From assembly GCF_045037415.1 (NCBI RefSeq), contig NZ_CP173438.1: a stretch of DNA of 64,000 nucleotides; one strand, 5' to 3'. Positions 27,073 to 50,172 of this stretch are shown here, one piece after another (positions within the stretch are counted from its first letter, which is position 1; every line of letters starts with the position of its first letter). The position numbers were made by a program, and so were the translations under genes. Under the pieces are notes generated by a model, which did no database searches, was not told the origin of the DNA, and saw only the letters and a program-made list of their open reading frames with translations. Origin of the DNA: Escherichia coli (lineage in GTDB: Bacteria > Pseudomonadota > Gammaproteobacteria > Enterobacterales > Enterobacteriaceae).

Positions 27073-27326
27073 TATCTGAACGTATCATCTACAAATTAAA
27101 CAAAATGGAGGGCAATTTACCATAAACCAGGTTAAGTATGGGAGATTAACGCCTTATCTACCTCTCTATTGGTGGGTTAGTGGTTGCAAACCTTACGTGC
27201 CAGTTATGTCTCTGACTACTACTCAGGCGTATTTCCTTTGTGATAATGGTCACTTTTTTTAAACAATTAAGATAACTGTAATTAACAATCATTTACTATT
27301 GCACTGTTAATTGGTGCGAGGTTGTG

Positions 27327-28508
27327 ATGAAAGACGTTGTGATTGTCGGGGCGTTACGGACACCTATCGGCTGCTTTCGTGGTGCGTTAGCGGGTCATTC
27401 CGCCGTGGAACTTGGCAGCCTGGTCGTCAAAGCGTTAATAGAACGTACCGGCGTTCCTGCATATGCGGTGGATGAAGTGATTCTTGGTCAGGTGTTGACT
27501 GCAGGGGCAGGGCAGAATCCGGCAAGACAATCGGCTATTAAAGGTGGTCTTCCTAATAGCGTTTCTGCAATCACTATTAATGACGTTTGTGGTTCCGGGC
27601 TTAAAGCACTGCATCTGGCTACTCAGGCGATACAGTGTGGCGAGGCTGATATTGTCATCGCCGGTGGCCAGGAAAACATGAGCCGCGCACCACATGTTCT
27701 GACTGATAGCCGCACCGGCGCACAGCTTGGCAATAGCCAGTTGGTTGATAGTCTTGTGCATGATGGGTTGTGGGATGCCTTCAATGATTATCATATTGGT
27801 GTCACCGCCGAAAATCTGGCTCGCGAATATGGCATCAGCCGTCAGTTGCAGGATGCTTACGCACTTAGCTCGCAACAAAAAGCGCGAGCGGCGATTGACG
27901 CCGGACGATTTAAAGATGAGATCGTCCCGGTAATAACCCAAAGTAACGGTCAGACGTTGGTTGTTGATACCGATGAACAGCCACGCACTGACACCAGCGC
28001 AGAAGGCTTAGCCCGTTTAAATCCTTCATTTGATAGTCTCGGTTCTGTGACAGCGGGTAATGCATCATCCATAAACGATGGGGCAGCTGCAGTAATGATG
28101 ATGAGCGAAGCCAAAGCACGAGCGTTGAATTTACCCGTGCTGGCCCGCATCCGCGCATTTGCCAGCGTTGGTGTGGATCCGGCATTGATGGGAATTGCGC
28201 CGGTGTATGCGACCCGCCGTTGCCTGGAGCGTGTTGGCTGGCAGTTGGCTGATGTCGATCTTATCGAGGCTAATGAAGCGTTTGCTGCACAGGCGCTTTC
28301 GGTTGGCAAGATGCTTGAATGGGATGAGCGTCGGGTCAATGTTAATGGTGGTGCGATCGCACTCGGTCACCCGATAGGCGCTTCCGGTTGCCGAATCCTG
28401 GTTTCTCTTGTTCATGAAATGGTGAAACGTAATGCCCGCAAAGGACTGGCAACGCTTTGTATCGGCGGAGGCCAGGGTGTGGCATTGACCATTGAACGTG
28501 ACGAGTAG
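27327..28508 (+). CDS. yqeF: Acetyl-CoA C-acetyltransferase (thiolase)
   Basis: Thiolase signatures VCGSGLKAL and C-terminal CIGGGQGVA; ATG at 27327 chosen (393 aa). Confidence 0.92.
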   Translation: MKDVVIVGALRTPIGCFRGALAGHSAVELGSLVVKALIERTGVPAYAVDEVILGQVLTAGAGQNPARQSAIKGGLPNSVSAITINDVCGSGLKALHLATQAIQCGEADIVIAGGQENMSRAPHVLTDSRTGAQLGNSQLVDSLVHDGLWDAFNDYHIGVTAENLAREYGISRQLQDAYALSSQQKARAAIDAGRFKDEIVPVITQSNGQTLVVDTDEQPRTDTSAEGLARLNPSFDSLGSVTAGNASSINDGAAAVMMMSEAKARALNLPVLARIRAFASVGVDPALMGIAPVYATRRCLERVGWQLADVDLIEANEAFAAQALSVGKMLEWDERRVNVNGGAIALGHPIGASGCRILVSLVHEMVKRNARKGLATLCIGGGQGVALTIERDE

Positions 28509-28664
28509 CTCTGCATTACCTCCTTACCGATAAATATCTGCCGTCATTAATCTGTTGAATAATGATGGCTGGTGAGTCGACATACCTTTTCAGGGCTCCC
28601 TGATTTTTCCATTCTCATGACATATTCGTGATCGACACTGCACTTTTTTTAATCCTTAACTTGA

Positions 28665-28751
28665 AAATGAAACATTGTTTTATTTTTAATTGAAAACCCT
28701 ATCCCATGGGCATATCATCCCCTCATAGAGAAAACGAAACAGTGTTTTATT
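28665..28751. promoter_or_regulatory. Two KdgR-type operators upstream of kduI
   Basis: AAATGAAACATTGTTTTATTT (28665-28685) and AAACGAAACAGTGTTTTATT (28732-28751) match the ATGAAACA-N-TGTTTCAT KdgR box. Confidence 0.55.
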
Positions 28752-28794
28752 ATTGTTTTCTATTTTCACGCTTCACTGATTATCGGAGGTTGAT

Positions 28795-29631
28795 GTGGAC
28801 GTAAGACAGAGCATCCACAGCGCGCACGCAAAAACGCTGGATACCCAGGGGCTGCGCAATGAATTTTTGGTTGAAAAGGTATTTGTCGCCGATGAGTACA
28901 CCATGGTTTACAGCCACATTGACCGTATTATTGTTGGCGGCATTATGCCGGTAACTAAAACGGTTTCCGTTGGCGGGGAAGTTGGTAAACAACTCGGCGT
29001 AAGCTATTTCCTTGAACGTCGCGAGTTAGGTGTTATCAATATTGGCGGTGCCGGTACGATTACTGTCGATGGTCAATGCTATGAAATCGGTCACCGCGAC
29101 GCCCTGTATGTTGGTAAAGGTGCAAAAGAAGTTGTCTTTGCCAGTATTGATACCGCCACTCCGGCGAAGTTTTATTACAATTGCGCACCCGCGCATACGA
29201 CGTATCCCACCAAAAAAGTCACACCGGACGAAGTATCTCCAGTCACGTTAGGCGATAACCTCACCAGTAACCGTCGCACGATTAACAAATATTTTGTCCC
29301 GGATGTGCTGGAAACCTGCCAATTGAGTATGGGGCTGACGGAGCTGGCTCCAGGTAACTTGTGGAACACCATGCCGTGTCACACCCACGAGCGCCGGATG
29401 GAAGTTTATTTCTATTTCAATATGGATGATGACGCCTGCGTTTTCCACATGATGGGGCAACCGCAAGAAACGCGTCACATTGTGATGCATAACGAGCAGG
29501 CGGTGATCTCCCCGAGCTGGTCGATCCATTCCGGCGTCGGAACCAAAGCTTATACCTTTATCTGGGGCATGGTCGGTGAAAACCAGGTTTTTGATGATAT
29601 GGACCATGTGGCCGTTAAAGATTTGCGCTAG
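28795..29631 (+). CDS. kduI: 5-dehydro-4-deoxy-D-glucuronate isomerase
   Basis: 278 aa, GTG start with GGAGG RBS; N-terminus [24 protein letters not shown]. Confidence 0.93.
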
Positions 29632-29660: not shown

Positions 29661-30422
29661 ATGATTTTAAGTGCATTTTCTCTCGAAGGTAAAGTTGCGG
29701 TCGTCACTGGTTGTGATACTGGGCTGGGCCAGGGGATGGCGTTGGGGCTGGCGCAAGCGGGCTGTGACATTGTTGGCATTAACATCGTTGAACCGACTGA
29801 AACCATCAAGCAGGTCACGGCGCTGGGGCGTCGTTTTTTAAGCCTGACCGCCGATCTGCGAAAGATTGATGGCATTCCAGCACTGCTGGATCGCGCGGTA
29901 GCGGAGTTTGGTCATATTGATATCCTGGTGAATAACGCCGGATTGATTCGCCGCGAAGACGCTCTCGAATTCAGCGAAAAAGACTGGGACGATGTCATGA
30001 ACCTGAATATCAAGAGCGTATTCTTCATGTCTCAGGCAGCGGCGAAACACTTTATCGCGCAAGGCAATGGCGGCAAGATTATCAATATCGCGTCAATGCT
30101 CTCCTTCCAGGGCGGGATCCGTGTGCCTTCTTATACCGCATCAAAAAGCGGTGTGATGGGCGTGACGCGATTGATGGCGAACGAATGGGCTAAACACAAC
30201 ATTAATGTTAATGCGATAGCTCCGGGTTACATGGCGACCAACAATACTCAACAACTGCGGGCAGATGAACAACGTAGCGCGGAAATTCTCGACCGCATTC
30301 CAGCTGGCCGTTGGGGACTGCCGAGTGACCTGATGGGGCCGGTGGTGTTCCTTGCCTCCAGCGCTTCAGATTATGTGAATGGTTATACCATTGCCGTGGA
30401 TGGCGGTTGGCTGGCGCGTTAA
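29661..30422 (+). CDS. kduD: 2-dehydro-3-deoxy-D-gluconate 5-dehydrogenase (short-chain dehydrogenase)
   Basis: 253 aa; SDR glycine motif TGCDTGLG and catalytic YTASK. Confidence 0.93.
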   Translation: MILSAFSLEGKVAVVTGCDTGLGQGMALGLAQAGCDIVGINIVEPTETIKQVTALGRRFLSLTADLRKIDGIPALLDRAVAEFGHIDILVNNAGLIRREDALEFSEKDWDDVMNLNIKSVFFMSQAAAKHFIAQGNGGKIINIASMLSFQGGIRVPSYTASKSGVMGVTRLMANEWAKHNINVNAIAPGYMATNNTQQLRADEQRSAEILDRIPAGRWGLPSDLMGPVVFLASSASDYVNGYTIAVDGGWLAR

Positions 30423-43845: not shown

Positions 43846-43942
43846 TGTTATTAGTGTGTAATGCCCTGCAGAGAGTGGTTTACCGTCTTCCTGGAGTATG
43901 AAACAATCATTCGTATATAAAGCTTTATTTTGAGGTAGTCCG

Positions 43943-49768: not shown

Positions 49769-50172
49769 ACCGCGAAAAGGGTGTTTCGTCACTGGCTCTG
49801 GTCCTGATGCTGCTGATTTTGGGTAGCTTGCTATTGCAAGGAATGAGTCAGCAGGATCGCAGTTTTGCTTCTCGCGTGAGCATGGAAAGTCAGTCATTGC
49901 GCCGCCAGGCCATCGTTCAGTCGGCGCTGGAGTGGGGAAAAATGCACTCCTGGCAGACGCTGCCCGCAGTTCAGTGCTTACTGTATGCTGCCACCGGTGC
50001 CCGGGTTTGTCTGCGTTTACTGGCAGATAATGAAGCCTTATTGATTGCTGGTTATGAAGGCGTTTCGTTGTGGCGAACAGGCGAAGTCATCGATGGAAAC
50101 ATTGTTTTTTCGCCACGCGGCTGGAGCGATTTTTGTCCGCTGAAAGAGAGGGCGTTATGTCAGCTTCCCTGA
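49765..50172 (+). CDS. ygdB: Pseudopilin-like protein with N-terminal hydrophobic segment
   Basis: 135 aa, GTG start; 4-nt overlap with ppdB. Confidence 0.85.

Follow-up and report, generated by a model that had tools for sequence, protein, structure and literature searches.

The window analyzed in this work, a stretch of 64,000 nucleotides, belongs to the Escherichia coli chromosome. The 3.2-kb stretch surrounding the elements described below is 100% identical to the corresponding one of strain SK1144 and of several other complete genomes, and it was found in 5423 out of 5426 complete E. coli genomes. In RefSeq, the identical strain is annotated with the genes of the locus in the order yqeG (minus strand), yqeF, kduI, kduD, and araE (all on the plus strand). 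The yqeF gene spans positions 27324–28508 (RefSeq). The kduI gene (28795–29631, plus strand, with a GTG start; RefSeq) codes for a 5-dehydro-4-deoxy-D-glucuronate isomerase and is recognized by the NCBIfam equivalog NF002091 with 455.7 bits; kduD (29661–30422, plus strand; RefSeq) codes for a 2-dehydro-3-deoxy-D-gluconate 5-dehydrogenase (NCBIfam TIGR01832, 456.9 bits). The gap between the two genes is 29 bp long, and they are probably co-transcribed. The gene encoding KdgR lies outside the window and is present in 5424 out of 5426 complete E. coli genomes; the K-12 KdgR protein corresponds to the NCBIfam KdgR equivalog (482 bits).

At the upstream end of the yqeF-kduI spacer, the consensus scan retrieved a weak terminator-like hairpin followed by a T-run, located 3' of yqeF on the plus strand (28590–28611); it has a 5-bp stem with three G-C pairs (TCAGGGCTCCCTGA, then TTTTTCC) and separates yqeF from the kduI promoter. 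In the 80-species alignment described below, no cross-genus conservation of this hairpin was observed, with 0.2 bits upstream of position 28626. At the other end of the spacer, a Shine-Dalgarno sequence, GGAGGT (28785–28790, plus strand; 1.78 bits over the 80 species), ends 4 nt before the kduI GTG.

The elements on which this analysis is focused are two short boxes located between these two ends. Box 1 (28665–28685) is the 21-mer AAATGAAACATTGTTTTATTT, and box 2 (28732–28752) is the 21-mer AAACGAAACAGTGTTTTATTA; they were compared with the published 21-bp KdgR consensus, AAATGAAACAnTGTTTCATTT, deriving from Rodionov et al. 2000/2004 as quoted in PMC5559549. The first one matches it at 19 out of 20 positions and the second one at 17 out of 20; the two are here termed predicted KdgR operators 1 and 2. 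An earlier sequence-only reading of this DNA had proposed two near-palindromic boxes, ATGAAACATTGTTTTAT and ACGAAACAGTGTTTTAT, 45–130 bp upstream of the kduI GTG start. RefSeq annotates the kduI start as the GTG at position 28795, and both sequences are present exactly where they had been placed (28667–28683 and 28734–28750), that is, 112–128 and 45–61 bp upstream of position 28795. Their near-palindromic nature was also recovered, with complementary bases in seven out of eight arm pairs of box 1 and in six out of eight of box 2.

The two boxes are clearly distinguishable from the rest of the window. When the 64-kb sequence was scanned exhaustively on both strands (about 64,000 positions), they scored 19/20 and 17/20, respectively, and the next best site scored 14/20. 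A pattern search admitting no more than three mismatches to the 21-bp consensus retrieved exactly two sites in the whole window, corresponding to box 1 and box 2; the number of sites expected at this threshold, estimated from 100 dinucleotide-preserving shuffles, was 0.00. A third exact copy of the 12-nt core GAAACANTGTTT does exist at positions 50096–50107; it falls within the coding sequence of ygdB, scores no more than 13/20 over the full 21 bp, and was considered a chance occurrence. For comparison, the best KdgR-consensus sites found upstream of two canonical K-12 targets of KdgR score 17/20 (kdgT, AAATAAAACAGCGTTTCAATT) and 15/20 (kdgK, TAATGGAACACTGTTTTAATA), values that the kduI boxes equal or exceed.

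A sigma-70 promoter was recognized between the two boxes by the consensus scan, with the structure TTGAAA-17-TATCAT matching at 10 out of 12 positions. The -35 hexamer TTGAAA (28690–28695, plus strand) is invariant in the 80 species (2.0 bits), and so are the TA..AT positions of the -10 hexamer TATCAT (28713–28718, plus strand), while the spacer between the hexamers is 17 bp long in all of the 62 species correctly parsed. The same hexamer pair and spacing have been catalogued for kduI among the promoters bound by the RpoD holoenzyme alone in genomic SELEX (PMC3946193). Transcription would start at position 28725 (plus strand), where an A conserved at 96% follows a C conserved at 79%, 7 nt after the -10 hexamer, giving a 70-nt leader; no experimentally mapped kduI transcription start was found in the literature searched, and positions given relative to this putative +1 are to be read as approximate. 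On this numbering, box 1 covers about -60 to -40 (center at -50), with 4 bp left between its end and the -35 hexamer, and box 2 covers about +8 to +28 (center at +18) in the 5' leader. Since box 2 would lie downstream of the predicted +1, only box 1 is located upstream of the promoter. The two boxes bracket the kduI promoter. A second promoter-like match, with a -35 TAGAGA at position 28726 and a -10 TATTAT at 28748–28753, overlaps box 2; its hexamers are unconserved in the 80 species, and it was discarded.

The conservation of this region was analyzed by fetching the kduI loci from 80 species-representative genomes, almost all belonging to Enterobacteriaceae (with a few metagenome-assembled or mislabelled contigs among them), at a KduI identity of 91–99%. 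The 250 bp upstream of the start codon were aligned, and the information content of each column was calculated on the window plus 79 fetched loci, with the exclusion of one chimeric contig. The spacer turned out to be poorly conserved apart from sharply bounded islands. The arms of box 1, TGAAAC and GTTTTA (within 28668–28682), carry 1.97 bits each, whereas the three central nucleotides (28674–28676) carry 0.95 bits; in box 2, the left and right arms (28735–28740 and 28744–28749) carry 1.75 and 1.41 bits, respectively, and the center (28741–28743) only 0.35. The promoter spacer, the remainder of the leader, and the upstream sequence range from 0.2 to 0.65 bits. Two conserved arms with a free 3-nt center represent the signature expected of a dyad operator, and not that of a coding or a structural constraint.

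The position of the boxes is constrained as well. The center of box 1 precedes the -35 hexamer by 15 bp in 56 out of 56 correctly parsed species, and the center of box 2 lies 29–31 bp after the start of the -10 hexamer in 58 out of 60. The distance between the two centers was measured in the 67 sequences (out of 81) whose top two sites are these boxes, and it corresponds to 67 bp in 46 of them, to 68 bp in 16, to 69 bp in three, and to 65–66 bp in two.

Two other explanations of the conserved columns were checked and rejected. Three small ORFs overlap the boxes, coding for 21 (28628–28693, plus strand), 27 (28686–28769, minus strand), and 32 (28706–28804, plus strand) residues; the conserved columns are arranged as a dyad instead of following codons, and the frames are interrupted by indels from one species to another. 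As regards an RNA element, an Rfam scan of positions 28400–28900 retrieved only two matches, both to plant microRNA precursors (E-values of 0.23 and 0.68), whose scores do not come near the gathering thresholds. We attribute these chance matches to the ability of the two palindromic boxes to pair with each other; moreover, box 1 lies upstream of the predicted +1 and would, therefore, not be transcribed from the kduI promoter.

The 141-bp control region was found in 5385 out of 5426 E. coli genomes, at 90–100% identity. The variation within the genus was inspected in an alignment of 11 Escherichia sequences, of which eight are E. coli alleles (one from the window, the others from seven strains) and three are more divergent Escherichia loci. 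In box 1, the three divergent loci have an A in place of a T in the center, and one strain has GAAAT in place of GAAAC in the core, which is unchanged in the other 10 sequences. The right arm of box 2 differs according to the lineage, being GTTTTAT in the window, GTTTCAC in K-12-like alleles, and GTTTCATTG in NU14; versus the KdgR consensus, the alleles of the window and of K-12 both total 17/20.

A further conserved element was detected upstream of box 1. The best match of the spacer to the CRP consensus is ATTCGTGATCGACACTGCACTT (28624–28645), whose center would be at about -90.5 from the putative +1. It matches the consensus at 13 out of 22 positions (6 out of 10 in the core), which places it in the top 0.09% of the window positions. 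Its left half, CGTGA, is strong and conserved, whereas the right half, CTGCA, is weak; among the 80 species, CGTGATC (28627–28633) has 1.84 bits and CA (28641–28642) is nearly invariant. Class I CRP sites are usually centered near -61.5, -71.5, -82.5, or -92.5. The binding of CRP to the kduI promoter in EMSA and its activation by CRP have been reported (PMC8085971), and kduI is down-regulated upon crp deletion (PMC8846999). It is plausible that the element at 28624–28645 represents the CRP site of kduI. The two boxes were also considered as CRP sites themselves and rejected, neither of them containing a TGTGA/TCACA core.

The genetic data available for K-12 point in the same direction as the sequence of the boxes. 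The deletion of kdgR increases the mRNA levels of kduD, eda, kdgT, and kdgK, as revealed by Northern blots (PMC6958661); for the presence of KdgR boxes at these genes, that paper cites Rodionov 2000/2004. Over-expression of kduI, kduD, kdgT, and kdgK was also seen in an RNA-seq compendium, in a strain lacking 39 genes, kdgR among them, from which its authors predicted a repression by KdgR (PMC6892915). In addition, a kduI promoter-lux fusion is induced 7–54-fold by galacturonate or glucuronate (PMC3578941); the primers used for this fusion map to about 28471–28832, so that both boxes are included. The sequence-only reading had named a lack of KdgR binding and of derepression in a kdgR mutant as the outcome speaking against it; this test has been partly carried out in the published K-12 work, where kduD mRNA in one case, and kduI and kduD in the other, were found to increase. 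The Northern blot result could in principle be partly indirect, since the kdgR deletion affects the mRNA of plaR too. The literature searched yielded no result from EMSA, footprinting, ChIP, or DAP-seq for E. coli KdgR at the kduI promoter, and the occupancy proposed for KdgR is, therefore, based on motif, conservation, and genetics.

Taken together, the 19/20 and 17/20 matches to the consensus, the operator-type conservation, and the published kdgR genetics in K-12 bear out the interpretation of the boxes as KdgR operators that had been given from the sequence. By every sequence-level criterion tested, as well as by the published genetics, the kduID boxes are members of the KdgR-operator family. 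We consider it very probable that they are KdgR operators placed around the sigma-70 promoter of the kduI-kduD operon and that they act through an occlusion-type repression.

In principle, we can depict the following scenario. In the absence of the inducer, KdgR would sit on both boxes, each of which would be within, or at the edge of, the region covered by the RNA polymerase in the open complex (roughly from -55 to +20). Box 1 is placed between the -35 hexamer and the CRP-like site, where the alpha-CTD would be expected to dock; its occupancy should exclude the polymerase or block the contacts that this makes through alpha-CTD and with CRP. At box 2, a bound repressor would reach into the downstream boundary of the open complex and should exclude the polymerase or hinder promoter escape. 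Given this position inside or at the edge of the polymerase cover, productive initiation should fail when either box is occupied. During the catabolism of hexuronates or unsaturated uronates, 2-keto-3-deoxygluconate (KDG) would accumulate and release KdgR from the DNA, allowing the transcription of kduID assisted by CRP-cAMP. KDG is the established inducer of KdgR in Dickeya (PMC5559549) and, by analogy, most likely plays the same role in E. coli. Both the physical presence of KdgR on each box and steric occlusion as the way in which it represses are what we infer from this arrangement.

The repressor acting at the boxes might not be KdgR alone. The paralogous IclR-family protein PlaR (YiaJ), responsive to galacturonate and ascorbate, might bind one or both of them and co-repress kduID together with KdgR, which would add to the KdgR model rather than replace it. 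A genomic SELEX peak of PlaR has been detected at kduI, PlaR gave gel shifts with ten high-affinity targets, by the text apparently including kduID, kduD mRNA increases when plaR is deleted, and the PlaR box, ATnTGAAACnnnGTTCAnTT, differs little from the KdgR box (PMC6958661). Box 1 matches the PlaR box at 13 out of 16 specified positions, as counted by eye on a consensus printed with 20 letters though described as 21 bp long, and at this resolution the PlaR motif and the KdgR box are indistinguishable. However, the gel shifts required micromolar PlaR (1–5 µM), and the operator of yiaK (ATTTGAAATCAAGTTTCGCAT), the strongest target of PlaR, has only 12/20 matches to the KdgR consensus versus the 19 and 17 of the kduI boxes. 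The YiaJ i-modulon, described as a putative ascorbate utilization, comprises only 10 genes and is recovered at 91% by the YiaJ ChIP-exo targets, whereas kduI and kduD were grouped with the signal of the kdgR deletion (PMC6892915). Moreover, KdgR and PlaR alter each other's mRNA (PMC6958661), and the effect of PlaR on kduD may be indirect for this reason. On balance, we regard a contribution of PlaR as a serious but tentative possibility, less likely than not. A more radical version, in which PlaR and not KdgR acts at the boxes and the phenotype of the kdgR mutant is indirect, would account for in vitro binding having been reported for PlaR, while none was found for E. coli KdgR at kduI in the literature searched, and for the altered plaR mRNA in the kdgR mutant (PMC6958661). 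That mRNA rises in the mutant, though, from which a stronger repression of kduD would be expected, and not a weaker one; derepression upon the loss of KdgR was observed in two independent data sets (PMC6958661, PMC6892915), kdgT, kdgK, eda, and kduID constitute the classical KdgR regulon, and the KdgR consensus fits the kduI boxes far better than it fits the PlaR operator at yiaK. A role of PlaR in place of KdgR appears, therefore, very unlikely.

The existence of two boxes at a tightly conserved center-to-center distance, mostly of 67 bp, raises the question of whether they work as a cooperative pair, with a KdgR tetramer or two interacting dimers looping or wrapping the 67 bp of core promoter and a repression dependent on the spacing. 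Proteins of the IclR family are commonly tetrameric. Nevertheless, the constant distance is also what would result from each box being anchored to its own promoter element, with 15 bp to the -35 hexamer, a 17-bp spacer, and 29–31 bp from the start of the -10 hexamer; 67 bp correspond to about 6.4 helical turns (at 10.5 bp per turn), so that the boxes would not be on the same face of the helix; and indels of 1–2 bp are tolerated between them, while a 67-bp loop would be energetically costly. Such cooperation is, in our opinion, unlikely. The least credible of the explanations considered here is one with no specific repressor at all, in which the boxes would be A/T-rich palindromes arisen by chance or else features found at promoters in general (an UP element, DNA bound by H-NS, or sites for CRP). 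Box 1 does occupy the place of an UP element (-40 to -60), H-NS has been flagged at the yqeF-kduI spacer (PMC3946193), and box 1 matches the CRP consensus at 12 out of 22 positions, owing to its A/T flanks. On the other hand, no site is expected from the shuffled sequences, the conserved positions coincide exactly with the dyad arms (GAAAC/GTTT) on either side of a free 3-nt center and do not form an A-tract pattern, box 2 is located downstream of +1, a position that suits neither an UP element nor a class I activation by CRP, and the loss of kdgR derepresses the operon (PMC6958661, PMC6892915); we assign almost no weight to this explanation.

The boxes preferentially interpreted as KdgR operators find their closest counterparts in other members of the same regulon. 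The KdgR boxes of Dickeya dadantii (Erwinia chrysanthemi), and more generally those of the gamma-proteobacterial pectinolysis/KDG regulon, have the same dyad as the kduI boxes, with the difference that the right arm of both boxes in the window is GTTTT and not GTTTC. The binding of the Dickeya repressor was reportedly demonstrated in vitro by Nasser et al. in 1992/1994. The Dickeya regulon also includes kduI and kduD, and it is controlled by a repressor of the same family with induction by products of uronate catabolism; in contrast, E. coli has no pectinases, and its regulon is reduced to the intracellular part (kdgT, kdgK, eda, and kduID). Within K-12, the sites of kdgT and kdgK share the motif, and both genes are likewise released from repression when kdgR is deleted (PMC6958661), but they have single boxes, whereas kduI has two boxes around its promoter, the first one being a better match to the consensus than either of those sites.

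Two other systems resemble the kduI control region in part. The PlaR box in the plaR-yiaK spacer of K-12, with its GAAA(C/T)-N3-GTTTC arms, also serves a repressor of the IclR family; the effectors differ, being ascorbate and galacturonate for PlaR and KDG for KdgR. The gal operon, with the GalR operators OE and OI, shares with kduI the presence of operators both upstream and downstream of the transcription start, together with an upstream activation by CRP. This resemblance is to be taken as an analogy only: the gal operators are about 113 bp apart, compared to the 67 bp of kduI, GalR belongs to a different protein family, and at kduI there is no evidence of looping or of an architectural protein.

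The KdgR repression of kduI-kduD is in itself already known, having been predicted by comparative genomics in 2000–2004, with support from the expression data of mutants in 2019; what is added here is the geometry of the kduI promoter, together with the published evidence of a binding of PlaR to the same spacer, which is brought into the picture. The anatomy of the kduID control region can be described as a CRP-like site, operator 1, -35, -10, +1, operator 2, and a Shine-Dalgarno sequence, an order backed by the footprint over 80 species, and the locus represents a case in which a genuine operator pair was recognizable from the sequence alone. According to this description, a uronate-catabolic operon would be subject to a textbook-style repression by a member of the IclR family. 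It is also conceivable, even though improbable, that the fixed geometry reflects KdgR (responding to KDG) and PlaR (responding to galacturonate/ascorbate) sharing or dividing the boxes, or a KdgR tetramer clamping both of them around the core promoter; if either the dual-repressor or the clamp arrangement were true, two signals from plant sugars would converge on the single promoter of kduID.

Upstream of box 1, the KdgR-consensus match lying just 5' of the kduI -35 hexamer (28665-28685), a conserved island of the form CGTGATC...CA was found at window positions 28624-28645, centred at about -90.5 relative to the inferred transcription start. The island is CRP-like, its right half being weak, and can be regarded as a candidate site for this regulator; such an element is in keeping with the published CRP binding and activation of kduI. 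The yqeF-kduI spacer also contains, on the minus strand (28547-28618), an ORF of 23 amino acids, MRMEKSGSPEKVCRLTSHHYSTD, in a stretch of low conservation across genera (about 0.2 bits per column). A stress-induced microprotein of 23 amino acids, adjoining kduI and predicted to bind KduI, has been described in UPEC 536 (preprint PMC11188072), and the ORF may correspond to it.

The comparison of kduI upstream regions revealed that several genera, among them Phytobacter and Kosakonia, have a third inverted repeat, e.g., ATTGAAAACGTGTTTTAGCC, some 23 bp downstream of box 1 (loci L008, L011, L032, L043, L056, L078, and similar ones); it is absent from E. coli. In those genera the repeat overlaps with the -35 hexamer, and its match to the KdgR consensus is 12-14/20; it may represent an additional operator in the lineages bearing it. 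One locus (L002:1-560, JACZXR010000090.1, labelled as a Deltaproteobacteria MAG) harbors neither the kduI promoter nor either operator: it encodes a KduI sharing 99% identity with that of E. coli, and from about -20 upstream the sequence gives way entirely to part of an N6-methyltransferase-like ORF with the motif LLANPPYIG. This MAG contig appears to be chimeric or contaminated.

Elsewhere in the window, the core GAAACATTGTTT occurs a third time without mismatch, within the ygdB coding sequence (50096-50107); since its score against the full 21-bp KdgR consensus is only 13/20, this copy is most likely a chance match. The sequence GTATGAAACAATCATTCGTAT (43896-43916), located about 47 bp upstream of rppH, scores 14/20; this match, too, is probably due to chance, because it has a single good half-site and its score falls within the background tail.

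Within E. coli, the right arm of box 2, the match in the kduI leader (28732-28752), differs by lineage at window positions 28748 and 28750-28752: the window has GTTTTAT, K-12-like strains have GTTTCAC, and NU14 has GTTTCATTG. Moreover, the core of box 1 is altered to GAAAT in one strain, MFDS1019527. Such variants of the two boxes could make repression differ slightly from strain to strain.
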